A stretch of DNA of 64,000 nucleotides from Candidatus Latescibacterota bacterium. Lineage in GTDB: Bacteria > Latescibacterota > UBA2968 > GCA-2709665. Made by a program: the position numbers and the translations under genes. The notes below the pieces were generated by a model. It searched no databases. It was not told where the DNA came from and was given only the letters and a program-made list of their open reading frames with translations. Shown piece after piece: positions 36,350-63,777 of the stretch (within the stretch, counting starts at the first letter, position 1; each line of letters starts with the position of its first letter). Location: positions 5,504,001 through 5,568,000 of the forward strand of contig OZ244744.1 of assembly GCA_965219455.1 (NCBI GenBank), written 5' to 3'.

Positions 36350-37381
36350 TCATTTCGTTTCCGATGATTCGGTCGCGTTGTCTGAGGCTGTTGTTGGTGC
36401 GGTGGGGGCGTCCCCCTTCTCTCCCGTTGGCGATTCTTCGCTTATGCTGCCCGTGTCCACAGGCTCTGATTGCGGGGCACGTAATCGAGTGAGCTTTTCC
36501 TTAAGCGCCGACCAGAGCCCGGACAGGCCAACCTGCTGTCGCGATGCCGGGGTCTCTTCGTCCTGATCGTCTCCCTCCACATCGGTATCTTCGGTAATCG
36601 CCTCCTCGCTGCAATCGGCCTCCGGGGCGTAGAGCAACACGGTGGTATTGTCCTGGTAGGGACGTTCCGCGGCTTCCACGGCATGGATCAGCGCGCCTGC
36701 GACGTCGTCGAGTGACGCGTCGCCTTGATCGTCAAGAATTCGCTCGATCTCCTCATCCCCGAGGGTCATCAGGCCGTCGCTTGCCAGCAGGAGTCGATCT
36801 GTTTTCCGGACCGCAACCGGCTGGGACGAGACGTCAACCAGGTGGATCTCCTCGCCCATCACCGCGGACCGCAGCGCATGCCGGTTGGAATCCGTGGCCG
36901 CCTGCTCAGCGGTCATGCGACCGGCCGCCACCAGGCTGGCCAGTACCGGCGCCATGGAATGATCGGCATTGAGGCGGCGCAACCGGCCGTCTCGGAACAG
37001 CCACAGCGGGGAATCCCCCACGCTGATCCAGTCGATTCCATCGCGCGAAATCACCGCCACGACCACCGTGGACCCCATCCCCTTCATTTCGGGGTTTTCG
37101 CTCGTCGCGTCGGCGAGGGCGTCGTTGGCGGCGGCAAGGCAGGCGCGCAGACGATCCGGGATCGGTCCATCCGTGGCGGGATAGGTTTCCACGAACGTCT
37201 TGACAACGGTCCTGCTGGCCGTGTCGCCGCTCACGTGCCCCCCCATCCCGTCGGCGAGCACCAGCACCTCGCCGCCGTCCGCGTCGGATTCATCCCGCTC
37301 GATCAGGCCGTAATCGTCCTCCTGGTATTCCCGGCCGCCGGGAATCTGCCGCGCGGCGAATCGTCCTTCCAATCGGTTCAT
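36350..37381 (-). CDS. PP2C-family Ser/Thr phosphatase (copy 1)
   Basis: REYQED, LADGMGGH, VGDS, ASDGL, QDNTT; acidic disordered tail. Confidence 0.93.
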   Translation of the reverse strand: MNRLEGRFAARQIPGGREYQEDDYGLIERDESDADGGEVLVLADGMGGHVSGDTASRTVVKTFVETYPATDGPIPDRLRACLAAANDALADATSENPEMKGMGSTVVVAVISRDGIDWISVGDSPLWLFRDGRLRRLNADHSMAPVLASLVAAGRMTAEQAATDSNRHALRSAVMGEEIHLVDVSSQPVAVRKTDRLLLASDGLMTLGDEEIERILDDQGDASLDDVAGALIHAVEAAERPYQDNTTVLLYAPEADCSEEAITEDTDVEGDDQDEETPASRQQVGLSGLWSALKEKLTRLRAPQSEPVDTGSISEESPTGEKGDAPTAPTTASDNATESSETK

Positions 37382-38001
37382 GGTATTCCTCCATGCAAGC
37401 GAAATACGACGGGCATCTCATCGAGCATATCCTGTCAATATGGTGCAATGCGGTATCCGTCTTCTTGATGCTCTAGGATCTGCTCCATTTTTCTATCCAC
37501 TACCCTTTAATGCAACTCCACTACAACTTCCAGGGCCTATCACGGACGATCGAAATTTGTGCGGAAGACCAATTTGGACGGTCAGCCGAATTCTCAGGTT
37601 TCGTTCTGTAGGGGAAAAGGTTTTAAGTTTTTAGTTAAGTATTAGGCATTGTTCGGTAAAATTCATGCGTTGAATGAGCCATTTGGATGGTATGGTCCAA
37701 ATGGTGGATGTGCCATTATTCTCGTCCTGCGGACGTTGTAACACAACCAAAGTCTTGAAGCACCTCGTAAGTGTCAGCGAGGGGGTAGAGGACGTCCGCA
37801 CTATCATTGTCGCGGCAGGCTCTGCACGCAGGCTCCATATCTGGTGATCCTAACGTGTGTGGGCGGAATTGAAGGTTTTGGGGAATTATCCTGTCTACGC
37901 TGTTTATCCATTTCTATCGATTTTTCGTTGAAGTCCAGGATTTTTGGGTTTTGCACTTTGCTTCAAGCTGAATGCTGTAAGCTGTACGCTGACAGCTTTT
38001 T

Positions 38002-40626
38002 TTATGGCGTAAGCGTCCGGGCAATACGGAAACCGACGTTGTGGAGCCGCCCCCCGGTGTAGCTCCTGAAGCGATACGCGGCGCGGAGGATCCCGGGATC
38101 GACGTTGTACCACGAGCCGCCGCGCAATACCCGCTTCGCACAATCGCCCCCCTCCCAGGCTGACCCATCCGCAGGGGCGCCCGTATAGCTGTTGTTCCAG
38201 CAATCCTCAACCCACTCCCATACGTTCCCATGCACGTCATGCAGTCCCCACGCATTGGCCCAAAACGAACCCGCAGGCGCCGTCTTTTCATCGTCCCAGC
38301 GGCTACCGCAACCGTCGCAGTTGGCACGGTTGTGTCCAATCTCATCGCCCCAGTGATATCGCGTCGTTGTCCCGGCACGCGCCACGTACTCCCATTCCGC
38401 CTCACTCAACAAGCGATACGTCTTGTCCGTCCGTCGTGACAACCACCGCACATACGACTGCGCGTCATCCCAACTCACGTTGATCACGGGGCGGTTCCCG
38501 CGGCCCCATCCACTATCGTCCGGGACGTACCCGCCGCAACCTCCGGCATTCGCGCAAGCGTCCCATTCCGCAAACGTAACCTCGTACACACCCACCGCAA
38601 ACCGATAATCGATCCTTACGCGATGACGGGGTCGCTCGTCATCGAACCCCTCGCCACTATGGGACCCCATCATGAACGAGCCCGACGGCACCACCACCAT
38701 CTCCGGGCATTCTGCACAGACCATGAATTTTCCGCCTACTGTCCCGCTCAGCCGCTGGGCCTTACGCGCTGCCGACAGACGTCTTTCGAATCCGGACAAC
38801 ACTGAATCATCCACGTTAACCGCGCGTAGAGAATCCACGTAGCCATCTGCCTTGTCAAACGCCTCTTCTTCCAGGGTTTTCTCAAACATCCCTTTATACC
38901 GCTCAATCTTAGCCTGACGAAGGCGTTCCGCCTCCTCGGCGGCCAGACGCGCCCGTTCCACTTTCAGTCTTCGTGCCTCCACCTCACGCGCCGCCAACAA
39001 GCGATCTTCCAACCCCAACAACACGGGCGCAGATGCATTGACGGAACGCAGCGATTCCACGTACCTGACCGCTGTATCGAAATCCTTCCGGTCGAGCGAT
39101 TCCTCGAATTTTCGTTTGAAATCCACCACTTTGGCCAGGCGACGACGTTCCGCCTCCTCGGCGGCCAGCCGCGCATCTTGCTCCGCCTGCCGACGACGCT
39201 GTTCCGCCAGACGCGACGCCGATACGCGATCTTGCAACCCTGGCAATACGGGCGCATCTGCCCACACACCCCGTACCCGGGACACGTACTCATCCGCCTT
39301 GTCGAACTGCTTGGCGCGCAACGACGCATCAAACTTCGTCACGTAACGGCCGATTACGCTGTCCAGACCCGCGCTCGCTTCCTTATGGCCCGGCGCCAGG
39401 GCCAATACCGCCTGATACTTCTCCCACGCGTTGTTCCCCGCGGGACTCGTCAGCCGGTCCCGCGCCAGGTCTTCACCAGCGCCCGACAACAAAGCCGACA
39501 TCTGTTTAGCAGCTTCTCCTTCCAGCGCCAGGCGGAGCTGCTCCGGGCGATGGATGTTTTCATAGTAATAATAGCCCCCTCCCATCAGAAGCGCCAACAC
39601 GCACGCCACGGCGGCGAAAACCGGCCACTTGCGTTTCCCGGCCTGCCTCACGCGTGAACCATCAACCGTTGTGCGCTGCCGTGACCTCGGTGGGCGACCC
39701 TTTTCGGGCCTGACGACCGGCCGCGGTTTCTTCGCGCTGTCCGGCGTCTTTCCGGAAAGCGCAGTACGCCACGCGGCCACGCTCTGCGGGCGGTCCCCCT
39801 CATCCACCTTCAACGCCAGATCTATCGCCACAAGAAAACCGGCGCTCGCCTGACCCGCGCAACGCTCGGCCACCGGATCCAGCGGATCATTGCGCACCCG
39901 ATCCGTTGCATCGTCAGGGACGTGACCCGTCAATGCGTGGTAGCACACTGCGCCCAGCGCATAGATATCCGTCCAGGGTCCCTGGTCGCCGCGACTGGAA
40001 TACTGCTCGATGGGCGCGTAACCCGGCGTGATGATCGACGTGACAGACCGGCTGCGCGCCCCGATCGCCTGACGCGCCGCGCCGAAGTCCAGCAGCACCG
40101 GCGACCTGTCCTCGTCACGGATGATGATATTGCCAGGCTTGACGTCGCGGTGCAGAAAATTGGCCTCGTGGACCTCCTCCAGACCGTCCAGAATCGGAAA
40201 CAGAATGGCCTTAAGATCGGCTTCGCCCAACGTCTTACTGCGTTTGAGGAATTCCGACAGGGTCTCCCCCTCGGCGTATTCCATAACGATATACGCCGTG
40301 CCGTGCGCCTTAAAAAAACGAAACACTTTGATGATATGCCGGTGATCGAACCGGGCAAGGGTGCGCGCTTCGTCCAGGAATCGTTCCAGGCCCCACTCGA
40401 AGTCACCCAGAAACTGGCTCGCCTTCGGGACCACGCTGTTGTCGTCCGTGCGCGCGGCAATGTCGTCCGGCAGGAATTCCTTCACCGCGACCCCTTTGTC
40501 CAGGTTGTGGTCAAAACCCAGATACGTCATGCCGAAACCGCCGAAGCCCAGCACTCTCATCAGTTCGTATTCCTGCAGCCGATAACCCTGCGGCAGCGCG
40601 TTGAGCGGGTGTTGAGCGTCGTTCAA
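38002..40626 (-). CDS. Receptor-like Ser/Thr kinase - TM - helical stalk - FGE-sulfatase/CLec domain (K1, DGR target)
   Basis: GFGGFG, VAVKE, HRDVKPGN, DFG, YAPIE; TM WPVFAAVACVLALLMGGG; RLLSEAEWEY, GNVWEW, RGGSW...GFRIAR; TTG start. Confidence 0.93.
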   Translation of the reverse strand: MNDAQHPLNALPQGYRLQEYELMRVLGFGGFGMTYLGFDHNLDKGVAVKEFLPDDIAARTDDNSVVPKASQFLGDFEWGLERFLDEARTLARFDHRHIIKVFRFFKAHGTAYIVMEYAEGETLSEFLKRSKTLGEADLKAILFPILDGLEEVHEANFLHRDVKPGNIIIRDEDRSPVLLDFGAARQAIGARSRSVTSIITPGYAPIEQYSSRGDQGPWTDIYALGAVCYHALTGHVPDDATDRVRNDPLDPVAERCAGQASAGFLVAIDLALKVDEGDRPQSVAAWRTALSGKTPDSAKKPRPVVRPEKGRPPRSRQRTTVDGSRVRQAGKRKWPVFAAVACVLALLMGGGYYYYENIHRPEQLRLALEGEAAKQMSALLSGAGEDLARDRLTSPAGNNAWEKYQAVLALAPGHKEASAGLDSVIGRYVTKFDASLRAKQFDKADEYVSRVRGVWADAPVLPGLQDRVSASRLAEQRRRQAEQDARLAAEEAERRRLAKVVDFKRKFEESLDRKDFDTAVRYVESLRSVNASAPVLLGLEDRLLAAREVEARRLKVERARLAAEEAERLRQAKIERYKGMFEKTLEEEAFDKADGYVDSLRAVNVDDSVLSGFERRLSAARKAQRLSGTVGGKFMVCAECPEMVVVPSGSFMMGSHSGEGFDDERPRHRVRIDYRFAVGVYEVTFAEWDACANAGGCGGYVPDDSGWGRGNRPVINVSWDDAQSYVRWLSRRTDKTYRLLSEAEWEYVARAGTTTRYHWGDEIGHNRANCDGCGSRWDDEKTAPAGSFWANAWGLHDVHGNVWEWVEDCWNNSYTGAPADGSAWEGGDCAKRVLRGGSWYNVDPGILRAAYRFRSYTGGRLHNVGFRIARTLTP
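38018..38135 (-). repeat. DGR variable repeat VR1 (not cognate with the local TR)
   Basis: Homologous to the TR but with a 3-nt insertion and about 12 non-adenine differences. Confidence 0.7.
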
Positions 40627-40734
40627 GGTGGTAACCTCAATGCGTGGTCAATTGCAAAACCAATCCAGGGAGGGCAAGAGTGTCCGCCTGCATTCTTTAA
40701 CGATAGCTACAGCCACAGTTGCAACGGAAGCCGC

Positions 40735-40840
40735 GGGAGATTCTTCGACTCCGCTCAGAATGACATGCTTTGCAGTAACCATTGGTGAACTGTGTCCGTC
40801 ACGTGTCGGCACAAACTGTCAGGCTGAGGAAGCCTGCAGG
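40735..40840. repeat. CTCAGAATGACA / TGTCATGCTGAG intergenic repeat
   Basis: 40735-40810 is identical (76 bp) to 59601-59676; related pieces at about 43720-43795, 59445-59860 and 63885-64000. Confidence 0.8.
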
Positions 40841-40982
40841 GGGGAGAAATCGGGTGCGAAGGCGCTTTCTCGCGGGGTTCTCCAAGAGCGCCACAGACGC
40901 GCGGGTTTATTCGCTTTTCGGTTTTGCCGTTCGCTCTTTGCTTCAAGCTGTCTGCTGACGGCTGAACGCTGACAGCTTGTTT

Positions 40983-43607
40983 TTACGGTGTAAACGTCCG
41001 GGCAACACGAAATCCGATGATGCTGTCCCGAGTGCCGGCGGTATTCCTGTTGCGGTCCGCCGAACGCAGGAACCTCGGAGTGCTGAGCCACGAGCCGCCG
41101 CGCAACACGCGATTCGCGCAGGCGCCCCGCCCCCACGCCGATCCGTCCGCAGGCGCCCCCGCATAGCTGTCGTTCCAGCAATCTTGTGTCCACTCCCAAA
41201 CATTGCCCAACACGTCATGTAACCCAAATGCATTTGGCTCATAGTTGCCGGCTGGTGAAGTCCTGTAGTATCCATCGTCGCACGGCGCGACAGTCCAGCC
41301 ACTTTCGTGACGTCTTGCAGTCTCATCCGCTCCATTGCCATAATGACACTGTTCCCTTGACGATTCTCCCCAATAACGGGCTGCCGTCGTACCCGCACGC
41401 GACACGTACTCCCATTCCGACTCGCTCAGCAAACGATACCTTTCTCTCGTCCTTTCCGACAACCACCGCACATACCCCTGCGCGTCATTCCAACTCACGT
41501 TCATCACCGGACGGTTACCCCGGCCCCAGCCCCTATCATCCGGCCGATATCCCCCGCAACCCCCAGCGGACGCGCACGCGTCCCACTCCCCAAACGTCAC
41601 TTCATACACCCCAACCGCAAACCGATAACCGATCCGCACGCGATGCCGCGGACCCTCGTTATCATAACGCCCCGACTCCCCACCCGGAGACCCCATCATG
41701 AACGATCCCGACGGTACCACCACCATCTCCGGACAGTTCGCACAATCCCTGAATCTCCCGCCTACTGTGTGTTTACGCGCTTTTGATAATCTTACCTTCA
41801 ATTCTGACAACACTGACTCACCGACATTAAATACATTTAGAGAATCCACATACACTCCCGCCTTGTCCAAAGCCTCTTCTTCCATCGTTTCCTCAAACTT
41901 CCTCATATACAACTCGATCTTAGCCTGACGAAGGCGTTCCGCTTCCTGTTGACGCCGCGCCGCCTCTCGCGCTCCGGACAATCGACCTTCCAACTGCGAC
42001 AACACGGGAGCAGATGCATTGACGGAACGCAGCGATTCCACGTACCTGACCGCTGTATCGAAATCCTTCCGGTCGAGCGATTCCTCGAATTTTCGTTTGA
42101 AATCCACGACTTTGGCCAAGCGACGACGTTCCGCCTCCTCGGCGGCCAGCCGCTCCCTGCGCTCTTCCACCCGCCGACGCTGCTCCGCCCCGCGCGCCGT
42201 AGTAAGGCGCTCTTCCAGGCTCGACAACACCGGCGCATCGACCCACGCGCCACGTATCAGGGACACGTACTCATCCGCCTTATCGAACTCCTTGTCCACC
42301 AACGACGCATCAAACTTCGTCACGTAACGGCCGATTACGCTGTCCAGACCCGCGCTCGCTTCCTTATGGCCCGGCGCCAGGGCCAATACCGCCTGATACT
42401 TCTCCCACGCGTTGTTCCCCGCGGGACTCGTCAGCCGGTCCCGCGCCAGGTCTTCACCAGCGCCCGACAACAAAGCCGACATCTGTTTAGCAGCTTCTCC
42501 TTCCAGCGCCAGGCGGAGCTGCTCCGGGCGATGGATGTTTTCATAGTAATAATAGCCCCCTCCCATCAGAAGCGCCAACACGCACGCCACGGCGGCGAAA
42601 ACCGGCCACTTGCGTTTCCCGGCCTGCCTCACGGGTGGACCATCAACCGTTGTGCGCTGCCGTGACCTCGGTGGGCGACCCTTTTCGGGCCTGACGACGG
42701 GCCGCGGTTTCTTCGCGCTGTCCGGCGTCTTTCCGGAAAGCGCAGTACGCCACGCGGCCACGCTCTGCGGGCGGTCCCCCTCATCCACCTTCAACGCCAA
42801 ATCTATCGCCGCCAGAAATCCTCCGCTCGCCTGACCGGCGCAACGCTCGGCCACCGGAACCAGCGGATCGTTCCGCACCCGGTCCGTTGCATCGGCCGGG
42901 ACGTCGCCCGTCAACGCGTGGTAGCACACGGCGCCCAGCGCATATATATCCGTCCAAGGTCCCTGGTCGCCGCGACTGGAATACTGCTCGATGGGCGCGT
43001 AACCCGGCGTGATGATCGACGTGACAGACCGGCTGCGCGCACCGATCGCCTGACGCGCCGCGCCGAAGTCCAGCAGCACCGGCGACCTGTCCTCGTCGCG
43101 GATGATGATATTGCCAGGCTTGACGTCACGGTGCAGAAAATTGGCCTCGTGGACCTCCTCCAGACCGTCCAGAATCGGAAACAGAATGGCCTTAAGATCC
43201 GCTTCGCCCAACGTCTTTCTGCGTTTGAGGAATTCCGACAGGGTCTCCCCCTCGGCGTATTCCATCACGATATACGCCGTGCCGTGCGCCTTAAAAAAGC
43301 GAAACACTCTGATGATATGCCGGTGATCGAACCGGGCAAGGGTGCGCGCTTCGTCCAGGAATCGTTCCAGGCCCCACTCGAATTCACCCAGAAACTGGCT
43401 CGCCTTCGGGACCACGCTGTTGTCGTCCGTGCGCGCGGCAATGTCGTCCGGCAGGAATTCCTTGACCGCGACCCCTTTGTCCAGGTTGTGGTCAAAACCC
43501 AGATACGTCATGCCGAAACCGCCGAAGCCCAGCACTCTCATCAGTTCGTATTCCTGCAGCCGATAACCCTGCGGAAGCGCATTCAGCGGGTGTTGAGCAT
43601 GATTCAT
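40983..43607 (-). CDS. Receptor-like Ser/Thr kinase - TM - stalk - CLec (K2, DGR target)
   Basis: Same architecture; kinase and TM nearly identical to K1, different CLec loop. Confidence 0.93.
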   Translation of the reverse strand: MNHAQHPLNALPQGYRLQEYELMRVLGFGGFGMTYLGFDHNLDKGVAVKEFLPDDIAARTDDNSVVPKASQFLGEFEWGLERFLDEARTLARFDHRHIIRVFRFFKAHGTAYIVMEYAEGETLSEFLKRRKTLGEADLKAILFPILDGLEEVHEANFLHRDVKPGNIIIRDEDRSPVLLDFGAARQAIGARSRSVTSIITPGYAPIEQYSSRGDQGPWTDIYALGAVCYHALTGDVPADATDRVRNDPLVPVAERCAGQASGGFLAAIDLALKVDEGDRPQSVAAWRTALSGKTPDSAKKPRPVVRPEKGRPPRSRQRTTVDGPPVRQAGKRKWPVFAAVACVLALLMGGGYYYYENIHRPEQLRLALEGEAAKQMSALLSGAGEDLARDRLTSPAGNNAWEKYQAVLALAPGHKEASAGLDSVIGRYVTKFDASLVDKEFDKADEYVSLIRGAWVDAPVLSSLEERLTTARGAEQRRRVEERRERLAAEEAERRRLAKVVDFKRKFEESLDRKDFDTAVRYVESLRSVNASAPVLSQLEGRLSGAREAARRQQEAERLRQAKIELYMRKFEETMEEEALDKAGVYVDSLNVFNVGESVLSELKVRLSKARKHTVGGRFRDCANCPEMVVVPSGSFMMGSPGGESGRYDNEGPRHRVRIGYRFAVGVYEVTFGEWDACASAGGCGGYRPDDRGWGRGNRPVMNVSWNDAQGYVRWLSERTRERYRLLSESEWEYVSRAGTTAARYWGESSREQCHYGNGADETARRHESGWTVAPCDDGYYRTSPAGNYEPNAFGLHDVLGNVWEWTQDCWNDSYAGAPADGSAWGRGACANRVLRGGSWLSTPRFLRSADRNRNTAGTRDSIIGFRVARTFTP
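40999..41111 (-). repeat. DGR variable repeat VR2
   Basis: Versus TR 54931-55043: 16 substitutions at TR adenines and 2 synonymous non-A changes, no indels. Confidence 0.88.
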
Positions 43608-43836
43608 GGCGTAATCTTCAAAGGGTGTTCAATTGCAAAACCAGCAAGTCGAGGGAAGGGACCTGCCTGCCGAGCAGAACTCGGCGCAGGCAGGTGCCCA
43701 CGGTCCCGGGAGGCAGCGGTCAGAATGACAGATGTCCTGAAATCATCAGCGAATCGTGCCCGTTACACGCACGCCCGTACTGACATGCTGAGGAGGCCGC
43801 CCCTGGGTTTTATCTTGCCTATCCTGTTCATCCATG

Positions 43837-45815
<1,979 letters not shown>

Positions 45816-45833
45816 TTTCCCGGTTTCGCGCCT

Positions 45834-46577: not shown

Positions 46578-46689
46578 AACGACGTCCTCCTAAAGCGGTG
46601 AGCGGAAAGAGGTGAGATTCCTGTAACAAGACTTTGCACAAATCAGTGCCTGTTTATCTACGCTGTTTGCGTCGGGTGCGGGGTTGGCA

Positions 46690-53369: not shown

Positions 53370-53700
53370 CCGCAGGGGCGACCGGCCGGTCGCCCCTACA
53401 AATAACGCGAATCGATCATCTCCACTCCGACACGGGACTCTGAGGTCTCGGTTTCATGGACGTGAGCAGACAGGAATGTCCGCTCCACCCTCTCAAGCCT
53501 CTTCTCGATGTTCGCTCGAGCGCATCAACCATCATCTCCACGCCCGTACAATGGCTTGTCGAGCCCGTGAAGAATCGCGTGTGAAGGTGGGGCAGACATT
53601 CCTGTCTGCCTTTTTCAGTGTTCTTCTGCCGGAATGCAGATAGAAGAAAGGCGCCCACGGCCTTCTTATCGCAGGGCGACCAGCCGGTCGCCCCTACAAA
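53370..53700. repeat. REP/REPIN-like composite block (copy 2)
   Basis: REP palindromes at 53372-53399 and 53671-53697; segments homologous to 36040-36290 in permuted order. Confidence 0.8.
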
Positions 53701-53704
53701 TACC

Positions 53705-54736: not shown

Positions 54737-54930
54737 GGCATTCCTCCATTACGGCGCAGGACCGATGCCGTCCCATCAGTCTTGCATTCCATCACGGATC
54801 GTTGCGGCGCCCCTCCCCCACGTTCGCGGGGCAAGAGGGACACCGCACCCACCTCATCATGACCGTCCCTGGACGCTCCGTTGCATACCCGGCACCCCCT
54901 TGGGGACACCGGCTCCAGCCGTCGAGCGTG

Positions 54931-55045
54931 CGGGCAATACGAAACCCGTTGTTGTTGTTCCGTTTGCCGGTGGTATTCCTGTTGCGGTTCGCCGAGCGCA
55001 GGTTCCTCGGTTTGTTGTTCCACGAGCCGCCGCGCAACACGCGCT
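54931..55045 (-). ncRNA. DGR template repeat (TR)
   Basis: Begins at the RT stop codon; reads TGG AAC AAC AAA CCG AGG AAC CTG CGC TCG GCG AAC CGC AAC AGG AAT ACC ACC GGC AAA CGG AAC AAC AAC AAC GGG; 30 adenines in 16 codons. Confidence 0.95.
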
Positions 55046-56130
55046 CAGGAGGGACGATCAGGCTTCCAAAGCGGATCGAACCACCCGCCTCGAAAGATCG
55101 CATGGCGCAAACGCCATGTATTGGCATGCTCTGCATGCGCGATCCACGCGTGCACCCGCGCGTCCACTTCCTCGCGTGTGATATGTGCATGACGCCAGCG
55201 GTCGCGCATACTCCGCAACCGGTTGCGAAAGCGGCGCACATTGGCTTCAGGCAACCGCCGGTATCCGCCCGGCAGGAGCACAAAACCCAAGAAAGTGGTC
55301 GGTGCTAATGTCTCGTCAATCATCGTTTTTTCCGGGTGCAGAGACAGCCGGCGGCGCTGCAAAAAATCCGCGATGCCATCCCGCCAGGCAGCGAGTTGTT
55401 CCGGGTCGTCGTGAAAAAGCGCAAAGTCGTCGACGTAGCGGACGTAGCCGCTGGCTCGCAACATTTCCTTGCAGAAGTGATCCAGGCCGTCCAGGTATAA
55501 ATTGGCGAAAAACTGGCTGGTCAGATTGCCAATGGGTAACCCGCGCCGGCGTTCGATAGGCGTGAACAGATCGTCCCCAGGATAGTAAATATTCACCGGC
55601 TCCTGCGGATTGGAACCATCAATGATGCGGTCGGCCAGCGCCAGCGTGCGCTCACAGGCGATTCGACGGCGTAGATCCGCCTTGAGAATCTCGTGATCGA
55701 TGGCTGGAAAGTAACGGTAAAGGTCGCACCTCAACACGTGGCGAAAACGGTCGCGGAACCGTTCGTAACGCACGATCGCCCGGTGGGTTCCCTTGCCCTG
55801 ACGATTCGCATAGCTGTCGAAAATGAAACCGCGCTCGAAGAGCGGCTCAACGACACCGCAAAAGGCGTGATGGACGACACGGTCCCGAAACGGCGCCGCG
55901 GACACGGTGCGTCGTTTGGGTTCGCGGATCTCGATCGTCTTGTAACGGCCCGGACGATAGCGCCCGCTTTGGAGTTCCCGCTCAAGGCGCAGGACCTTGG
56001 GCTCCAGGTTCGCCAGGAACCCAGCCGCGACGGGTTTGGACCGTTTTCCCCGTGCCGCTTTTCGGGCCGCCACCATCAGGGCCGGGAAGGAAACGATCTC
56101 TCCGAAAATATCACGTGCTCTTGTGGGCAC
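55045..56130 (-). CDS. DGR reverse transcriptase
   Basis: PKRR.VSAAPFRDRVVHHA, GLPIGNLTSQFFANLYL, YVRYVDDF; GTG start at 56130 overlapping avd. Confidence 0.95.
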   Translation of the reverse strand: MPTRARDIFGEIVSFPALMVAARKAARGKRSKPVAAGFLANLEPKVLRLERELQSGRYRPGRYKTIEIREPKRRTVSAAPFRDRVVHHAFCGVVEPLFERGFIFDSYANRQGKGTHRAIVRYERFRDRFRHVLRCDLYRYFPAIDHEILKADLRRRIACERTLALADRIIDGSNPQEPVNIYYPGDDLFTPIERRRGLPIGNLTSQFFANLYLDGLDHFCKEMLRASGYVRYVDDFALFHDDPEQLAAWRDGIADFLQRRRLSLHPEKTMIDETLAPTTFLGFVLLPGGYRRLPEANVRRFRNRLRSMRDRWRHAHITREEVDARVHAWIAHAEHANTWRLRHAIFRGGWFDPLWKPDRPS

Positions 56131-56509
56131 GATGCACCTTTTGCCAGCCGCCGACAAGGCGTCCGGTTTCGTCGAGGGTCCTGGCGGCATGTTCGTAGCG
56201 ACGGAGATCAAGATAATGCAAATCACGGGCGAGCCGGCACAGAAATCTTAGCTTCTCGATGCCCAGGTTGGCGAGCGCAAGCGCATCACCCCGGCGCCTG
56301 GTGTAAGTCGCCTCGATCAGACGCTCCAGAACGTCCAATGCCGACGTCTGAATCCTATCTCCCAGAAGAAACTTCTGGCTGCGCGGGAAACGCTCGACGG
56401 TGGGGACCAACCAGACCAGAAAACGAAAGTGGGACTCCAGCGCCGGGCCAATCTCGCGCGAGCGGTCACCCCGGCCAGGAACTGGCTGTTGGCCGTCCCT
56501 TGCGTTCAA
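56111..56509 (-). CDS. avd: DGR accessory variability determinant Avd
   Basis: Basic four-helix-bundle pattern FPRSQKFLLGDRI...LRFLCRLA...GRLVGGW between target gene and RT. Confidence 0.92.
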   Translation of the reverse strand: MNARDGQQPVPGRGDRSREIGPALESHFRFLVWLVPTVERFPRSQKFLLGDRIQTSALDVLERLIEATYTRRRGDALALANLGIEKLRFLCRLARDLHYLDLRRYEHAARTLDETGRLVGGWQKVHRAHKST

Positions 56510-56635
56510 AACCGCCCTCCATTTTTCAGTATGTCGACATGCCTTGGCATACGTGCCTTTCCACCAGAGCCGGTCCTACCAAGATCGCACCTACTGGCAA
56601 CGACCGGGTCTTTAGCATGCCCAGACCGAAAATTC

Positions 56636-56658
56636 CCAGGGGGGCTGTGCCCCCCTGG
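56636..56658. promoter_or_regulatory. DGR target-recognition hairpin/cruciform downstream of VR3
   Basis: CCAGGGGGGC-TGT-GCCCCCCTGG, perfect 10-bp stem about 30 bp after the stop codon. Confidence 0.8.
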
Positions 56659-56688
56659 ACCCCCCATAAGACGTAAAGAGGTAAAGAT

Positions 56689-59334
56689 TCAAGGCGTAAG
56701 CGTCCGGGCAATACGAAACCCGATGACGATGACCCGTCTGCCGGCGGTATTCCTGAAGCGGAACGCCGAGCGCAGGAACCCCGGTATGATGCCCCACGAG
56801 CCGCCGCGCAACACGCGCTGCGCGCAGGCACCCCGCCCCCACGCCGTTCCGTCCGCAGGCGCTCCTGTATAGCTGTCGTTCCAGCAATCCCCAACCCACT
56901 CCCATACGTTGCCGTGCACGTCATACAAACCCCACGCATTGGCGCTGAAACTTCCCACAGATACCGTCTTTTCCCTATTCCGACCCTTCCGACCACTGCC
57001 ATACGTATAATTCCCGTTGTAATTCGCCTGGGCCGTCGTAATCGTCGATCCAAAATGAAATGGCGTCGTCGTACCCGCACGAGCCACGTACTCCCATTCC
57101 GACTCGCTCAACAATCGATACCTTTCACCAGTCCTTCGCGACAACCACCGCACGTACGACTGCGCGTCATCCCAACTCACATTCATCACCGGGCGGTTCC
57201 CACGGCCCCAGCCCCTGTCGTTGGGACGATATCCACCGCAACCTCCGGCATTCGCGCACGCGTCCCATTCCGCAAACGTGACTTCATATACACCCACCGC
57301 GAACCGATAATCGATACTCACGCGATGGCGCGGACCCTCATCGTCATCACGTCCCGACTCCCCACCGGGAGACCCCATCATAAACTAGCCCGACGGCACC
57401 ACCACCATCTCCGGACATTCTGCACAGTCCCTGAATTTTCCGCCTACCGTCCTGCGCAGCCGCTGGGTTTCTCGCGCTGCCGACAGACGGCCTTCCTTCC
57501 CGGACAACGTTGACGTTTCCGCATCGACTGCGCGTAATGAATCCACATACCCTCCCGCCTTGTCAAACGCCTCTTCTTCCAGGGTTTTCTCAAACATCCC
57601 TTTATACCGCTCGATTTTGGCTTGGCGAAGACGTTCTGTTTCCTCTGCAGCAATCCGTGCACTCTCGGCTTCCTGGCGACTTCGCTCCGCCTCGCGCGCA
57701 GACGACAGACGACCTCCCAACTCTGACAACAAGCGAGCAGATGCGTTTACAGCACGCAATGAATCCACGTAACTGCCCGCACGATCGAACGCCTTCCCGC
57801 CCAGGGATTCCTCGAACTTCCGCTTATGTTCCGCGATTTTAGCCTGACGAAGACGTTCTGCCTCCTCCGCTGCCAAACGCTCCCTGCGCTCCTCCTGGCG
57901 ACGACGCTGTTGCACCGCGCGCGCCGCAGACAGGCGCTCTTTCAGACTCGACAACACCGGCGCATCGGCCCAGACACCCCGTATCCGGGACATATTCTTA
58001 TCCGCCTTATCGAAATCCTTGTCCTCCAAAGCTCCGTCAAATTTGGATACGTAACGACCGATCACGCTATCCAGACCGGCGCTCGCTTCCTTATGGCCCG
58101 GCGCCAGAACCAATACCGCCTGATATTTCTCCCAGGCGTTGTTCCCCGCGGGACTCGTCAGCCGGTCCCGCGCCAGGTCTTCCACAGCACCGCCCAATAA
58201 TGCGGAGACCTGCGCATCCTGTTCCGCTTCCATCGCACGGCGAAGCTGATCCGGGCGATGGATGTGTTCATAGTAATAGTAGCCCCCTCCGATCAGAAGC
58301 GCCAACACACATACGAGCATGGCGAACAACGGTCCTTTGCGCTTCCCGGGCTGCCTGACGGGTGGATCATCGACGGTCTCGCGCTGCCGTGATCTCGGTG
58401 GGCGACCCTTCGCGGGCTTGACGACCGGCCGCGGTTTCTTCGCGGTGCCCGGCGTCTCCCCGGAAAGCGCAGTACGCCACGCGGCCACGCTCTGCGGGCG
58501 GTCGCCCTCATCCACCTTCAACGCCAAATCTATCGCCGCCAGAAATCCTCCGCTCGCCTGCCCGACGCTACGCTCGGCCACCGGCGTCAATGGATCGTTC
58601 CGCACCCTATCCGTGGCATCGTCAGGCACTCCACCCGTCAACGCGTGGTAGCACACGGCGCCCAGCGCATACACGTCCGTCCAGGGACCCTGGTCGCCGC
58701 GACTGGAATACTGCTCGATGGGCGCGTAACCCGGCGTGATGATCGACGTAACCGAGCGGCTGCGCGCCCCGATCGCCTGCCGAGCAGCCCCGAAGTCCAG
58801 CAACACCGGCGAATCGTCCGCGTCACGGATGATGATATTTCTCGGCTTGATGTCACGGTGCAGAAAGTCAGCCCCGTGAACCACCTCAAGACCGTCCAGG
58901 ATCGGATATAGGATCGCCTTCAGTTCCGCTTCGTCCAACGTCTTTCTGCGTTTGAGGAATTCCGACAGCGTGTCCCCCTCGGCATATTCCATCACGATAT
59001 ACGCCGTGCCGTGCGCCTCAAAAAAGCGAAACACTTTGATGATATGCCGGTGGTCGAAGCGGGCGAGGGTGCGCGCTTCGTCCAGGAATCGTTCCAGGCC
59101 CCACTCGAAGTCGCCGCGAAAGTGACTCGCCTGCGGCGCCACGCTATTATCGGCCGTACGGGTGGCGATATCGGCGGGAAGGTATTCCTTGACCGCGACC
59201 CCTTTGTCCAGGTTGTGGTCAAAGCCCAGATACGTCATCCCGAAGCCGCCGAAGCCCAGCACTCTCACCAGTTCGTACTCCTGCAGCCGATGCCCCTGGG
59301 GCAGGGCGTTGAGCGGGTGTTGCGCGTCGTTCAT
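56689..59334 (-). pseudogene. Receptor-like kinase - TM - stalk - CLec (K3, cognate DGR target) split by an in-frame TAG
   Basis: ORFs 57385-59334 and 56689-57381 are in the same frame; TAG at 57385-57387 where paralogs have TCG/TCA (Ser). Confidence 0.85.
56705..56819 (-). repeat. DGR variable repeat VR3 (cognate)
   Basis: 115 bp colinear with the TR; all 19 mismatches fall on TR adenines. Confidence 0.95.
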
Positions 59335-59444
59335 GGTGGTAACCTCACAGTTTGTGCAACTCCCCGCAAACTATCAGTTTGCGGTACGGATTGAGTTCAC
59401 AAGACGTATTTTGCTACAGTTTTAGTTGCGCGGCGCACATGCTT

Positions 59445-59860
59445 CGGTTCAGAATGACAGGTCGGTCGATCACCATTGGCGAATCGTGTCCCACACACCT
59501 GCGCCCTAACTGTCATGCTGAGGAAGCCGCCAGGCTGACGATGCGTCCGCGTCAATGTTCGTCGATCAACAGCACGCGCTCATGGGTCAATCGCACGTAC
59601 GGGAGATTCTTCGACTCCGCTCAGAATGACATGCTTTGCAGTAACCATTGGTGAACTGTGTCCGTCACGTGTCGGCCCTAACTGTCATGCTGAGGAAGCC
59701 TACAAGGCCGACGAAGCATCTACTGCGGCATGGGATCATGCCCGGGCGTCTGGCATTCGATCCGAACTAAAATGCGGCACAACCGCTCCCGCTTCGACTC
59801 CGCGCAGAATGACAGATGCCCTGAAATCATCAGCGAAACGTGTCCGTCACACGCACGCCA
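59445..59860. repeat. Array of CTCAGAATGACA / TGTCATGCTGAGGAAGCC inverted repeat units
   Basis: Three AGAATGACA and two TGTCATGCTGAGGAAGCC units alternate; homologous to the blocks upstream of K1, K2 and K4. Confidence 0.75.
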
Positions 59861-60119
59861 GCTTATCCGGCCGGCACGGCGGAAGCTGGGCGGAGCATCG
59901 CGAAGCCGCGTCAGGTTTTCATCACATTCATACTGCCCATTCTGACAGCCCTGATCATCCTGTCCATCCTGTTTATCCATGTTTCTCATTTCTGCATCCT
60001 CATCTCACGTGGCCTCATAGCGCTGCCACATGATTCCGTTTGTGTCGAAGCAACTCTTGACGTTGGAGATGAAACGGGCTATTATTTGATGTGGGCATTG
60101 TAGTAAGTCCCCTGCAAAT

Positions 60120-60519
60120 GTGAAGGAAACAAAAGTGCCGGACGACACCAGGCCAATCTCAGGGTACAAGGGGATTCTGGGACAGGTCAACACACCGCTG
60201 GTGTTTTTTGCGCTGGCACTTTTGGTCATTGAAGGTATCATTGGATTTACTCTCGTCAATTCCAGACTCGACGCTGTACAACAATTCAACGTGATCTTGA
60301 TCAAGGCCGCGTTGTTTATGGCCGTTATCCTTAGTTGTTGCGTATATTACGGTGAAATATCCCCTGAATTTAATGGATAAAGTGAACGAGAGCCTGGGAC
60401 GCAATGAACTAATGGAAAAATACCTTGAAAGTGACGCGTTTAGAGACACTGTCGCAGATATCGTAGATGACATAGTCAAAAGGTCGCAGCCCGCGGAGGA
60501 GAAAAATGGATCTGAATGA
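60120..60519 (+). pseudogene. Small membrane protein, apparently frameshifted at about 60330
   Basis: Removing one C at ATCCTTA joins MKETKV...MAVI to LVVAYITVKYPLNLMDKV...NGSE*; lower GC than flanks. Confidence 0.5.
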
Positions 60520-60775
60520 ACGGGAGACAATAAAGGAAATCGTCAGAGTCATCTATCACTCGAACGGTGACTGGCGCACACCCGGGGGTATAGCGCGAGA
60601 CCTTGGAATCTCGTCTGAAACGGTGACCCACGTTGTCAAAAGCCATCCCGATTTCTTCATTATGGCGAGTGACGGACGGGTGAAATATGCGCTTCGACCC
60701 GCTGGTCTCGATCCGGTATCGCTTACTGAAAGCGCACGAAGACAATATACCCAGGGGATGACGCCGACCTGCTGA
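60506..60775 (+). CDS. Small hypothetical protein, winged-HTH-like
   Basis: WRTPGGIARDLGISSETV HTH-like segment; GGAG upstream. Confidence 0.5.
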   Translation: MDLNERETIKEIVRVIYHSNGDWRTPGGIARDLGISSETVTHVVKSHPDFFIMASDGRVKYALRPAGLDPVSLTESARRQYTQGMTPTC

Positions 60776-61078
60776 CGATAGACGCTGAATTCCTCCCACT
60801 CCCCGGTGTATTCTTGCCATTTCTCGCTCTTCACGTCCACCCTTCGCCTATTGCTGTTTTTGCGAGTACGTGTTGGATTATTAAATTTCGGATTTTGCTG
60901 TTCGCTCTTTGCTTCAAGCTGAATGCTGTACGCTGACAGCTTCTTTTATGGCGTAAACGTCCGGGCGGCATCCAGGATATCCGTCGGTTTGGCCTCGGGA
61001 AGGGATCTGAACCATGTCTATCGAGTTCGTTTACACCCGAACGAGACACGTAGTCAACCGGTCGATCCCGGAAAAATC

Positions 61079-61103
61079 TCCAGGGGGGCGCAGCCCCCCT
61101 GGA
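61079..61103. promoter_or_regulatory. DGR-type hairpin downstream of VR4
   Basis: TCCAGGGGGGC-GCA-GCCCCCCTGGA, 11-bp stem. Confidence 0.8.
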
Positions 61104-61131
61104 CCCCCATAAGACGTAAAGAGGTAAAGAT

Positions 61132-63777
61132 TCAAGGGGTAAGCGTCCGGGCAATACGGAAACCGATGACGTCGTTCCGTTTGCCGGCGGTGTTCCCGTC
61201 GCGGTCCGCGGCGCGGAGGTTCCCCGGGTAGACGTACCACGAGCCGCCGCGCAACACGCGCTTCGAACAATCGCCCCGCTCCCACGCTGATCCTTCCGCA
61301 GGCGCACCCGTATAGCTGTCGTTCCCGCAATCCTCAACCCACTCCCATACGTTCCCGTGCACGTCATACAAGCCCCACCCATTGGCGCTGAAACTGCCCA
61401 CAGATACCGTCTTTTCCCGATACAAACCCTTGCGACCGCCGCCGTACGTATGTTTGCCATTATAATTCGCCTGATCCGTCGATATTGTCGATCCAAAATG
61501 AAACGGGGTCGTTGTTTCCGCACGAGCAACGTACTCCCATTCCGACTCACTCAACAAGCGATACCTTGCACCCGTCTTTTCCGACAACCACTGAACGTAC
61601 AACTGCGCGTCATCCCAACTCACGTTGATCACCGGGCGATTCCCGCGCCCCCAGCCCCTGTCGCTGGGACGATATCCCCCGCAACCCCCAGCGGACGCGC
61701 ACGCGTCCCACTGTGCAAACGTCACTTCATACACTCCAACCGCAAACCGATAACCGATCACCACGCGATGGCGCGGACCCTCGTTATCGTAACGTCCCTC
61801 CTCGCCGCCGGGAGACCCCATCATGAATGAGCCCGACGGTACCACCACCATCTCCGGACAATCCGCGCAGTCCCTGAATTTTCCGCCTACAGTCCCACGC
61901 AGCCGCTGGGCCTCACGCCCTGCCGACAGACCACGCACCAATCCGGACAACGTTGACGCTTCCGCATCGACTGCGCGTAATGAATCCACATAGCCATCGG
62001 CCCTGTCAAATGCCTCATCTTCCAGGGCTTCCTCAAACTTGCCCTTATACCGCTCGATCTTAGCCTGGCGAAGACGTTCTGCTTCCTCTGCAGCCCTGCG
62101 TGCACGCTCGGCTTCCTGACGACTTCGCTCCGCCGCGCGTGCAGACGACAGACGATCTCCCAACTGTGACAACAAGCGAGCAGATGCATTGACAGAGCGC
62201 AGCGATTCCACGTACCTGCCCGCTGCATCGAAATCCTTTCGGCCGAGCGATTCCTCGAATTTTCGTTTGAAATCCGCCACTTTGGCCTGATGAAGGCGTT
62301 CCGCCTCTTCCGCTGCCAGCCGCTCCCTTCGCGCTTCCCGCTGACGACGCTGTTCCGCACCGCGCGCAGCAGACAGACGGTCTGTCAGGCTCGACAATAC
62401 GGGCGCATCGACCCACGCGCCCCGTATGCGAGACACATATTCTTCCGCCTTGTCGAACTCCTTGGTACGCAATGACGCATCAAACTTCGTCACGTAGCGG
62501 CCGATTACGCTGTCCAGTCCCGCGCTCGCCTCCTTCTGACCGGGCGCCAGGGCCAATACCTCCTGGTATTTCTCCCAGGCATTATTGCCCGCGGGACTCG
62601 TCAGCCGGTCCCGCGCCAGGTCTTCCGCAGCACCGGACAATAGCGCGGAGATCTTCGCTGTTTGTTCCCCTTCCTGCGCCTGCCGGCGCTGCGCCGGCAG
62701 ATGGATGTTCTCATAGTAGTAATAGCCCCCGCCGATCAGAAGCGCCAACACACATACGAGAACGGCGGCGAACAACGGTCCTTTGCGCTTCCCGGGCTGC
62801 CTGACGGGTGAATCATTGACGATCTCGCGCTGCCGTGATCTCGGTGGGCGACCCTTTGCGGGCTTGACGACCGGCCGCGGTTTCTTCGCGGTGCCCGGCG
62901 TCTTTCCGGAAAGCGTAGTACGCCACGCGCCCACGCTCTGCGGGCGGTCCCTTTCATCCACCTTTAATGCCCAATCTATCGCCGCCAGAAATCCGGCGCT
63001 CGCCTGACCCGCGCAACGCTCGGCCACCGGCGTCAGCGGATCATTGCGTACCCGATCGGTCGCATCGTCCGGGACGTCACCCGTCAGCGCGTGGTAGCAG
63101 ACAGCGCCCAGCGCATACACGTCCGTCCAGGGCCCCTGGTCGCCGCGACTGGAATACTGCTCGATGGGCGCGTAACCCGGTGTGATGATCGACGTAACCG
63201 AGCGGCTGCGCGCCCCGATCGCCTGCCGCGCCGCGCCGAAGTCCAGCAGTACCGGCGAATTGTCCTCGTCACGGATGATGATATTGCCGGGTTTGACGTC
63301 ACGGTGCAGAAAATCAGCCCCGTGAACCACTTCCAGACCATCCAGGATCGGATATAGGATCGCCTTCAGTTCCTCTTCGTCCAACGTCTTTCTGCTTCTC
63401 AGGACCTGGGAAAGCGTCTCCCCCTCGGCGTATTCCATCACGATATATGCCGTGCTGTGCGCTTCGAAAAAGTGATGCACGCGCACGATATTGGCATGCT
63501 GGAAACGCGCCAGTATCCGCGCTTCATCCAGGAACCGGTCCAGGCCCCATTTGAAATCCGCGGACGCTTCCGACGACTGCGGGACCACCGACATGTCGTT
63601 TTCCCGCGTCGCGAGATCGGATGGCAGATACTCTTTGATCGCCACGGGGATATCCAGCGCGATATTCCACCCCAGATAGGTGATCCCGAATCCGCCCTGG
63701 CCCAATACACGGTGAAACTCGAAGTCCTGTATTCGCGTGCCCTGTGGAAGCGCCAACCGGTGGTGCGCGTCGTTCAT
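61132..63777 (-). CDS. Receptor-like Ser/Thr kinase - TM - stalk - CLec (K4, DGR target)
   Basis: Intact kinase motifs with a divergent N-lobe; TM; CLec ending RGGSW...GFRIARTLTP. Confidence 0.93.
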   Translation of the reverse strand: MNDAHHRLALPQGTRIQDFEFHRVLGQGGFGITYLGWNIALDIPVAIKEYLPSDLATRENDMSVVPQSSEASADFKWGLDRFLDEARILARFQHANIVRVHHFFEAHSTAYIVMEYAEGETLSQVLRSRKTLDEEELKAILYPILDGLEVVHGADFLHRDVKPGNIIIRDEDNSPVLLDFGAARQAIGARSRSVTSIITPGYAPIEQYSSRGDQGPWTDVYALGAVCYHALTGDVPDDATDRVRNDPLTPVAERCAGQASAGFLAAIDWALKVDERDRPQSVGAWRTTLSGKTPGTAKKPRPVVKPAKGRPPRSRQREIVNDSPVRQPGKRKGPLFAAVLVCVLALLIGGGYYYYENIHLPAQRRQAQEGEQTAKISALLSGAAEDLARDRLTSPAGNNAWEKYQEVLALAPGQKEASAGLDSVIGRYVTKFDASLRTKEFDKAEEYVSRIRGAWVDAPVLSSLTDRLSAARGAEQRRQREARRERLAAEEAERLHQAKVADFKRKFEESLGRKDFDAAGRYVESLRSVNASARLLSQLGDRLSSARAAERSRQEAERARRAAEEAERLRQAKIERYKGKFEEALEDEAFDRADGYVDSLRAVDAEASTLSGLVRGLSAGREAQRLRGTVGGKFRDCADCPEMVVVPSGSFMMGSPGGEEGRYDNEGPRHRVVIGYRFAVGVYEVTFAQWDACASAGGCGGYRPSDRGWGRGNRPVINVSWDDAQLYVQWLSEKTGARYRLLSESEWEYVARAETTTPFHFGSTISTDQANYNGKHTYGGGRKGLYREKTVSVGSFSANGWGLYDVHGNVWEWVEDCGNDSYTGAPAEGSAWERGDCSKRVLRGGSWYVYPGNLRAADRDGNTAGKRNDVIGFRIARTLTP
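61148..61262 (-). repeat. DGR variable repeat VR4
   Basis: Versus the local TR: 14 changes at adenines and 6 at non-adenines, all six shared with VR1. Confidence 0.8.

Follow-up and report, generated by a model that had tools for sequence, protein, structure and literature searches.

Protein kinases with a C-terminal C-type lectin (CLec) domain are already known as targets of diversity-generating retroelements (DGRs), from cyanobacteria (PMC7517822) and from a survey of metagenome-assembled genomes (PMC11661182). An array of such kinases is also present in the stretch of DNA analysed here, a window of 64,000 nucleotides that covers positions 5504001-5568000 of the one-contig genome (5,844,228 bases) of a Candidatus Latescibacterota bacterium (GCA_965219455.1). 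Within positions 36350-63777 of this window, referred to below as the island, four kinase-CLec genes stand together with genes for PP2C phosphatases, FHA proteins, trypsin-fold membrane proteins, a TolQ/ExbB-type protein (TolQ-like) and a partner protein of 254 residues (p254). Comparison with related loci indicates that the region is one of two tandem copies of an undescribed membrane signalling cassette, and that the DGR was inserted in this lineage.

As far as the main texts of the two publications describe them, the known DGR kinases share with those of the island an N-terminal Hanks-type kinase domain and a C-terminal CLec/FGE domain that holds the variable repeat (VR), as well as an accompanying Avd protein, reverse transcriptase (RT) and template repeat (TR), and adenine-specific variation (PMC7517822, PMC11661182). 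The cyanobacterial variable proteins are mostly predicted there to be cytosolic (PMC7517822), whereas those of the island contain a transmembrane (TM) helix and a stalk of about 270 residues. Neither FHA nor MotA occurs in the main text of either publication, and the word trypsin does not occur in that of PMC7517822, supplements lying outside this comparison. A combination of hypervariable CLec sensor, adaptor domains and trypsin-like peptidase has been proposed for other systems, enriched in accessory islands (PMC7159879, PMC10907252). Those conflict systems employ STAND or MoxR-vWA NTPases and cytoplasmic effector-associated adaptor domains, whereas the cassette described here has FHA domains as putative phosphothreonine (pThr) adaptors, membrane-anchored parts and a TolQ-like channel. 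In the main text of PMC7159879, MotA and ExbB are absent and FHA appears only as a sporadic effector domain; in that of PMC10907252, MotA and FHA are both absent.

The closest parallel in working, judged by analogy, would be the pThr pathway of type VI secretion. In that pathway (PpkA/PppA/Fha1 with TagQRST) a membrane Hanks-type kinase with a periplasmic sensor, a PP2C phosphatase and an FHA scaffold switch on a membrane machine, and PpkA carries a periplasmic vWA domain. The cassette appears to follow the same logic of kinase, PP2C and FHA, and some relatives of p254 likewise have a periplasmic vWA domain. The cassette is unlike the type VI pathway in the number of its FHA modules, four, of which two belong to periplasmic trypsin-fold proteins, and in the TolQ-like channel that takes the place of the machine. 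No type VI genes are found among the domain-annotated open reading frames (ORFs) of the island, all of which code for kinase, PP2C, FHA, protease, TolQ-like, DGR or intron proteins, and the neighbours examined are housekeeping genes. The earlier note on this DNA knew of no characterised system with this combination of genes. Literature searches agree with it: no publication was found on a cassette of MotA/ExbB, FHA, PP2C, kinase and trypsin genes, subscription journals and supplementary files being outside their coverage.

Composition of the cassette

All of the large genes in 36350-63777 lie on the minus strand of the window's ORF map. Those for the kinases and the proteins that accompany them are as follows.

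36350-37381, minus strand: PP2C a, 343 residues (Pfam PP2C_2 2.8e-12; NCBIfam Stp1-type 2.8e-41, under its cut-off), with metal-binding motifs in the translation
38002-40626, minus strand: K1, kinase, TM helix (residues 334-352), helical stalk and CLec domain, 874 residues, TTG start (Pkinase 5.4e-36; FGE-sulfatase 4.9e-54)
40983-43607, minus strand: K2, kinase, TM helix, stalk and CLec domain, 874 residues (Pkinase 2.1e-36; FGE-sulfatase 1e-55)
45834-46577, minus strand: FHA247 (FHA-l), soluble, 247 residues (Pfam FHA 4.4e-4, marginal at 21.1 bits for a cut-off of 20.7); its long N-terminal region matches no domain
46920-47693, minus strand: TolQ/ExbB-type protein with three TM helices, 257 residues, read from Met-87 of a long ORF (Pfam MotA_ExbB 1.2e-9, 38.5 bits against a cut-off of 22.9)
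47695-48081, minus strand: FHA128 (FHA-s), small and soluble, 128 residues (Pfam FHA 1.3e-14), masked by a longer overlapping ORF
48093-48857, minus strand: p254, 254 residues, a single N-terminal TM helix with Asp-17, a coiled coil and a periplasmic beta-sandwich
48873-50489, minus strand: Tryp-FHA538, signal peptide, protease domain, Ala/Glu/Arg-rich stalk, TM helix (376-394) and cytoplasmic FHA domain (Trypsin_2 8.7e-29; FHA 4.5e-13)
50493-52316, minus strand: Tryp-FHA607, built like Tryp-FHA538, true start probably near 52070 (Trypsin_2 6.4e-14; FHA 1.5e-15)
53705-54736, minus strand: PP2C b, 343 residues, 85% identical to PP2C a (PP2C_2 2.2e-12)
56689-59334, minus strand: K3, the cognate DGR target, kinase, TM helix, stalk and CLec domain, with an in-frame TAG at 57385-57387 (Pkinase 1.4e-36 in the N part; FGE-sulfatase 6e-49 in the C part)
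61132-63777, minus strand: K4, kinase, TM helix, stalk and CLec domain, 881 residues (Pkinase 3.6e-38; FGE-sulfatase 4.2e-51)

The minus-strand gene list of the earlier note (four kinase-CLec proteins, two PP2Cs, two soluble FHA proteins, two protease-FHA proteins, a MotA/TolQ-type protein, its partner and a DGR) is present in full. Two of its descriptions stand in part: the four kinase paralogs with VRs are there, but K3 is cut by the TAG codon and the backbones of VR4 and VR1 differ from the TR; both protease-stalk-TM-FHA proteins are there, but Tryp-FHA607 lacks the catalytic Asp and Ser. Spacing within the cassette is tight, the stop codon of FHA128 lying 1 nt ahead of the TolQ-like start.

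Conservation and distribution

The arrangement was compared with 32 related loci. Sixteen were obtained by a scan with the TolQ-like protein, one genome per species, and have hosts labelled Latescibacterota (3), Gammaproteobacteria (12, including Azotimanducaceae, Azophilus and Rariloculaceae) and the alphaproteobacterium Litorimonas (1); the other sixteen were fetched from p254 matches in the phylum of the window. Across the 32 loci FHA247 is present in 31, in each case beside the TolQ-like gene, a kinase in 30, PP2C in 29, p254 in 27, an FHA-tailed membrane protein in 25, FHA128 in 24 and a CLec domain in 13, counts in which two loci are contigs shorter than 6 kb and the tblastn thresholds miss diverged members. 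The order in the phylum set is Tryp607, Tryp538, p254, FHA128, TolQ-like, FHA247, PP2C and kinase or kinases, and that in the proteobacterial loci is TolQ-like, FHA, PP2C, Tryp-FHA, p254 and kinase. The block is a conserved syntenic cassette, found across three bacterial classes with conserved gene order. The concern, raised in the earlier note, that it might not be conserved next to these kinases is dispelled by the counts for kinase, FHA247 and PP2C.

Its taxonomic distribution is uneven. In the phylum of the window p254 is found in 34 of 168 genomes, the genome of the window counted; the other 14 species of the genus all lack it, and within the family it occurs in one of 21. A p254 profile was also compared with 400 genomes sampled evenly from the class to which one gammaproteobacterial host belongs, and 12 of them matched; the starting genome and the unpublished G211 are among the 12, and G420 was not scored. 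The cassette is accessory, patchy and horizontally spread.

In the genome of the window the array continues beyond the window, to about position 5590661 of the contig, as judged by tblastn of the island proteins. Between 5568000 and 5590661 lie a PP2C fragment, three kinase-CLec genes, a second cassette set and an eighth kinase-CLec gene, so that two cassettes stand in tandem and eight kinase-CLec paralogs occur across the whole island. The proteins of the second set are 78% (FHA247), 94% (TolQ-like), 85% (p254), 78% (Tryp-FHA538) and 83% (Tryp-FHA607) identical to those of the first. One of the kinases beyond the window is matched in two overlapping pieces and may be frameshifted.

Receptor kinases

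Each of the proteins K1 to K4 has the Hanks-type catalytic motifs (beta-3 Lys, HRD...N and DFG), with Pkinase E values of the order of 1e-36 to 4e-38, and a single hydrophobic helix near residues 334-352 that follows a Lys/Arg-rich linker. C-terminal to this helix are about 270 residues of repeated helical sequence, the stalk. These features fit a topology in which the kinase is cytoplasmic and the stalk and CLec domain are periplasmic. The position of the TAG codon of K3 is a Ser codon in K1, K2 and K4; because of this stop, the CLec domain of K3 is, as assembled, detached from its membrane anchor and would not reach the periplasm.

The sensor end of the kinase varies from locus to locus. Besides CLec, it is formed by ankyrin repeats after the TM helix (locus L011), by Sel1 repeats with no TM helix (L013), by PEGA together with CLec (L014), by TerB and DnaJ (L005) or by DUF4328 (L009).

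Trypsin-fold, FHA and phosphatase proteins

Alignment reveals an intact His/Asp/Ser catalytic triad in Tryp-FHA538, and in Tryp-FHA607 the replacement of the catalytic Asp by Asn and of the Ser by Phe, which makes the latter a pseudo-protease. In five other loci (L012-L016) the single trypsin-fold copy lacks the catalytic His and Ser. Four of these five (L013-L016) instead encode, divergently from the cassette, fusion proteins of 690-1160 residues in which a PP2C domain, a TM helix, a thermolysin-type M4 peptidase with its HExxH motif, a second TM helix and an FHA domain follow one another (L013:5951-9364, L014:6081-9560, L015:1-2474 and L016:1-4369, all on the minus strand). Such fusions link phosphatase, periplasmic protease and FHA domain. 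A catalytically intact protease is present in 17 of the 32 loci, of the serine type in 13 and of the M4 type in four.

The cassette has four FHA modules, two in soluble proteins and two on the trypsin-fold membrane proteins, and their sequences suggest that they would read pThr. The catalytic motifs of the PP2C proteins are intact. Four short contigs from an RNA library labelled sponge metagenome (X11) fall on both Tryp-FHA genes, between 49645 and 51727, with 0-1 mismatch and depths of 2.5-2.9; at best they hint weakly at expression.

The TolQ-like protein and p254

The TolQ-like protein has three hydrophobic helices and ends about 25 residues after the third. Pro, Thr and Gly positions of its second and third helices are invariant in 19 of 19 sequences. 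An AlphaFold 2 (AF2) model, with a mean predicted local distance difference test score (pLDDT) of 82.7, was compared with known structures by Foldseek, and all of the top matches are TolQ or ExbB (probability 1.00, TM-scores up to 0.59/0.68); MotA/PomA and ZorA follow lower in the ranking, ZorA at rank 49. By sequence, the search of the PDB gave ZorA at a non-significant E of 0.52.

A membrane Asp in a partner with a single TM helix is the hallmark of MotB, TolR and ExbD. The N-terminal helix of p254 is nearly invariant, and its Asp-17, which lies in an invariant TM motif, is kept in 40 of 40 aligned sequences. Residues 133-253 of its AF2 model, mostly with pLDDT above 90, form a confidently predicted periplasmic beta-sandwich that comes closest in fold to 2qng (E 3.3e-4), a protein whose function is unknown. 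Searches of Pfam, NCBIfam and PADLOC gave no match for p254; sequence comparison with the PDB gave coiled-coil noise only and the ESM Atlas gave unnamed clusters. A periplasmic domain like that of TolR/ExbD or OmpA was not found in p254 by Pfam, PDB sequence or fold. The protein has 940 relatives at E <= 0.001 in a 90%-identity collection, and among the 120 of these that were listed one carries a source name, 'hypothetical protein'; at E <= 1e-10 there are 1082 cluster representatives among 1.84 billion. In other loci the periplasmic end of p254 is a vWA domain with a metal-site motif. Two loci (L002:7671-9602 and L006:7671-9602) have two tandem p254 paralogs with vWA periplasmic domains, and in both the pair adjoins a Tryp-FHA gene that has been truncated to its FHA tail. 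A complex prediction with four TolQ-like chains (residues 8-245) and residues 5-48 of p254, a stoichiometry that is not native, scored 0.01, which speaks neither for nor against such a complex.

These two proteins invite comparison with the Tol-Pal and TonB-ExbBD systems (PDB 8vlw, 9ddm, 9ddo, 5sv0), which share the three-TM TolQ/ExbB fold of about 250 residues, the single-TM partner with a membrane Asp, and single-TM proteins that bear a terminal binding domain on a long Ala/Glu/Arg-rich periplasmic stalk. The periplasmic part of p254, by contrast, is a beta-sandwich or vWA domain that matches TolR and ExbD neither in sequence nor in fold, and because of this difference the cassette is not a Tol or Ton system. 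In addition, no TolA, TolB, Pal or TonB is encoded in the island, and a conserved polar motif of the kind that docks TolA and TonB was sought in the TM helices of the kinases and Tryp-FHA proteins and none is kept across distant loci.

Zorya ZorAB (PDB 8qyh, 8vvn) provides another example of a MotA/ExbB-family protein outside flagella and in an accessory island. Identity with Zorya was rejected: the TolQ-like protein, at only 257 residues, does not have the long tail of ZorA, the PADLOC match to ZorA is partial and p254 has no match to ZorB. Among eight island proteins scanned against PADLOC there was no match to ZorC or ZorD.

The diversity-generating retroelement

The island has a complete DGR, with Avd, RT and TR, situated between K3 and PP2C b. 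Its parts and the VRs of the four kinases are listed here.

54925-55045, minus strand: TR, 121 nt, directly after the RT; 33 adenines and 9 AAC codons in the target frame
55045-56226, minus strand: RT, likely start at Met-51, position 56076 (RVT_1 1e-14; PADLOC generic RT 1.4e-46; IGNLTSQ and YVDD motifs)
56111-56509, minus strand: Avd, 132 residues (Pfam bAvd PF22296 4.9e-17, 62.8 bits against a cut-off of 40)
38012-38132, minus strand: VR1, orphan-like; 18 A and 13 non-A mismatches to the TR and a 3-nt indel
40993-41113, minus strand: VR2; 16 A and 3 non-A mismatches to the TR over 117 nt
56699-56819, minus strand: VR3; 19 A mismatches and 1 non-A mismatch to the TR
61142-61262, minus strand: VR4, orphan-like; 14 A and 7 non-A mismatches to the TR

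The long RT frame is overlapped at its upstream end by the Avd gene, which makes Met-51 the probable start of the RT. The RT has the motif IGNLTSQ, which we take to be a mark of DGR-type RTs, and is the only RT of this type in the genome; the other 14 RT matches are at most 44% identical, and those of their loci that were checked are group II intron copies. The TR is single-copy genome-wide.

In VR3, 19 of the 20 mismatches to the TR are at adenines (P = 2e-12 for random placement), and the single non-A mismatch is the usual C/G at the 3' end. Adenine enrichment is also significant in VR2 (P = 3e-7) and holds for all five VRs, that of the kinase K8 outside the window included (VR8, 13 A and 8 non-A mismatches), with P from 2e-12 to 3e-4. 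The signature of an adenine-specific DGR is therefore clean in VR3, less clean in VR2 and only loosely met in VR4, VR1 and VR8. The last three share non-adenine differences from the TR and look like leftovers of another TR that has been lost.

Variation of the VRs in populations was checked in assembled contigs of public runs, not reads, and such contigs drop rare variants. Among the contigs listed, VR2 shows no differences in one run (X1, possibly the source sample) and one difference in another (X6), and a search of metagenome contigs for VR-like stretches by their flank pattern gave no hits. One contig each in the runs X5 and X6 joins position 53400 to 56686 and skips PP2C b, TR, RT and Avd; with only 26 nt on its shorter side, this joint may reflect either a haplotype that lacks the DGR or an artefact of repeats.

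The DGR is absent from 29 of the 32 cassette loci, and a DGR RT occurs in two of the 32. One locus of Azophilus (L016) has an intact RT, 70% identical, with TR/VR mismatches at 12 A and 1 C. The closest relative of the window (L001) has a decayed DGR, of which an Avd match, a TR and the C-terminal 28 residues of the RT survive; these remains lie between kinase and PP2C as in the window, and the VR of this locus has 17 A and 4 non-A mismatches. Viewed from the side of the RT, 80 metagenome loci with relatives of 40-78% identity have Avd in 71 and a CLec target in 48, a kinase in one and a trypsin-FHA match in one; the TolQ-like, p254, soluble FHA and PP2C genes are found in none of the 80, of which only 28 are loci of at least 5 kb. 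The DGR is a rare, lineage-specific and partly decayed add-on that does not belong to the conserved circuit.

Proposed working and alternative explanations

The interpretation favoured here, with a probability of about 0.55, is that the cassette works as one phospho-signalling unit whose inputs are the kinases. Phosphorylation, FHA binding and ion flow are predicted from the sequences. With their CLec tips the kinases would bind periplasmic ligands, and they would autophosphorylate on Thr residues. The resulting pThr would be read by the four FHA modules, which would link the kinases with the trypsin-fold proteins as well as with the TolQ-like/p254 complex, itself a putative proton-driven unit of the 5:2 type that may perform mechanical work on a periplasmic partner or act as a gated ion leak. 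PP2C would reset the phosphorylation state, and the DGR would supply new ligand specificities at the sensor tips. Within this interpretation, a signal that runs from the kinases to the TolQ-like complex and the protease is put forward tentatively, and a signal in the reverse direction is doubtful.

The earlier note had drawn a complete circuit in which hypervariable receptors sense outside ligands and recruit extracellular proteases. Synteny bears out that the genes form one unit, but the DGR stands outside the conserved circuit, given its absence from most cassette loci and the lack of cassette genes beside its RT relatives. Protease recruitment is weakened as a general scheme, as one of the two proteins is a pseudo-protease and some loci have pseudo-proteases only. 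The ligands would not be outside ones, as the CLec domains would face the periplasm of a presumably two-membrane cell, and the cognate target of the DGR, K3, is interrupted by a stop codon.

Several observations weigh against the single phospho-signalling unit as proposed. K3 is the sole target with a clean VR, and it is prematurely stopped; the non-adenine differences common to VR1, VR4 and VR8 imply that the present TR has not recently rewritten them; and VR2, nearly identical among public contigs, shows no sign of turnover. Conservation of the kinase TM helices does not extend to distant loci, and with an intact protease in only about half of the loci, proteolysis may not be core. The sole sign of expression is the four X11 contigs, which may be DNA carry-over. 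The presence of the TolQ-like and p254 genes in the compared loci is by construction, as these served as baits, which does not apply to the other genes. Finally, no defence or secretion genes were found among the neighbours examined, in the window and in L002, where the genes are of the housekeeping kind.

This last point also belongs to the view that the cassette is a housekeeping envelope machine, in which TolQ-like/p254 would be a Tol/Exb-like energiser for upkeep or division, the kinases, PP2C and FHA proteins ordinary regulators that would resemble the actinobacterial PknB-PstP-FhaA/FhaB cluster, and the DGR a passenger. The flanking genes agree with it, as do the TolQ/ExbB proteins as best fold matches and the partial NCBIfam matches, below cut-off, to FhaB/FipA, Stp1-type PP2C and the MarP and HtrA proteases. 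It is nevertheless unlikely: the cassette is missing from all 14 other species of the genus and patchy elsewhere, it has been duplicated in tandem and has eight kinase paralogs, its sensor domains are swapped among loci (CLec, ankyrin, Sel1, PEGA, TerB-DnaJ, DUF4328) and a DGR has been recruited twice. Patchiness, duplication, sensor swaps and DGR recruitment are traits of an accessory, fast-changing system, and surveillance, be it of the envelope or of invaders, or host interaction seems more likely than a housekeeping role. A special case of the phospho-signalling unit would be defence of the abortive type, in which kinases that detect a periplasmic invader act through the FHA adaptors to unplug the TolQ-like/p254 channel and collapse the membrane potential. 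The accessory, patchy and paralog-rich character of the cassette is consistent with such a role, as are a weak PADLOC match of the TolQ-like protein to ZorA (7.6e-6), PADLOC matches of the kinase domain to defence kinases (mad6 at 2.6e-48, and PD-T4-6) and the diversified CLec sensors with trypsin-like effectors that have been proposed for other DGR loci (PMC10907252, PMC7159879). This special case, too, is held to be unlikely: the matches to ZorA and to defence kinases reflect generic domains, PADLOC does not recognise p254, and known defence genes are absent from the neighbours examined.

Rather unlikely, too, is an arrangement of energised receptors, in which the kinase-stalk-CLec proteins would dock on a TolQ-like/p254 motor that pulls on ligand-bound sensors, so that binding tested by force leads to Thr phosphorylation and on to FHA adaptors and proteases. 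It is suggested by the topology of the kinases, which is that of TolA and TonB (the N terminus in the cytoplasm, a single TM helix and then a long stalk that spans the periplasm and carries the binding domain at the C terminus); the absence of a shared docking motif, noted above, bears on it as well. Far less probable than any of these is that the DGR/kinase array and the block of protease, TolQ-like and FHA genes are independent and merely adjacent. The DGR is indeed separable, on the evidence of the cassette loci and the RT relatives alike, and mobile DNA, namely an intron and short dispersed repeats, occurs at several places in the island. For the kinases, however, chance adjacency is largely refuted, as they accompany the block in 30 of 32 loci of three classes and in a fixed order.

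Mobile DNA and neighbouring genes

Two kinds of mobile or repeated DNA were located in the island.

~43809-45817, plus strand: group II intron between the K2 and FHA247 genes, with a maturase/RT ORF at 44288-45658 (Rfam group-II-D1D4-4 at 43863-44000 and Intron_gpII at 45669-45815; RVT_1 1.9e-36; GIIM 1.5e-13)
~46700-46780, 40726-40841, 53420-53650 and 59570-59750, intergenic: dispersed repeats

The intron has at least six further genomic copies at identities of at least 99.6%, and its maturase/RT is intact; such near-identical copies indicate that it is probably still mobile. The dispersed repeats, of about 100 nt and with 26-43 genomic copies, lie in intergenic gaps of the island. One of them is in the gap between the TolQ-like and FHA247 genes, which measures 342 nt here and about 15 nt in relatives, and public contigs show length variants at 46714-46762. 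Two longer intergenic stretches, 52317-53704 and 59335-61131 (1.4 and 1.8 kb), have a lower G+C content (0.54), no convincing ORF and no Rfam match, and parts of them are repeated beside other kinase genes of the island.

In the window the neighbours of the island include xanthine-dehydrogenase-like genes, an ABC transporter, a PBP and LexA; those of the L002 cassette are a Mrp antiporter, Nqr-like genes, ApbE and an M48 peptidase. The LexA gene (35251-35937, minus strand) lies directly downstream of the island, and two beta-propeller proteins are encoded nearby, one PQQ_2/Kelch-like of 636 residues (33215-35125, minus strand) and one with Kelch repeats of 378 residues (17216-18352, minus strand). 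No link to the cassette was seen for LexA or for the two beta-propeller genes.

Significance

The linkage of the genes is real and is the main point of interest; the link to the DGR is real but lineage-specific, and the mechanism is what we infer from them. A conserved cassette of eight genes couples receptor kinases, four predicted pThr readers, membrane proteases and a TolQ/ExbB-type unit. The downstream signalling of kinase-CLec DGR targets has so far been unclear, and the cassette offers clonable candidates for such a pathway, in a version of about 7.4 kb in locus L003. It would possibly be a fifth setting of 5:2 ion-driven motors, beside flagella, Tol/Ton, gliding and Zorya, and p254 is a protein family with no annotation and more than 1000 cluster representatives. 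The swaps of sensor domains (CLec, ankyrin, Sel1, PEGA, vWA), together with the repeated capture and loss of DGRs, show how receptors gain variability. Identical contigs occur in libraries labelled sponge metagenome. If the receptors were indeed energised and their sensor tips rewritten by a DGR, the cassette would be a programmable and horizontally mobile system of periplasmic surveillance, perhaps one used by sponge symbionts, and a bacterial counterpart of the receptor-kinase immunity of plants.

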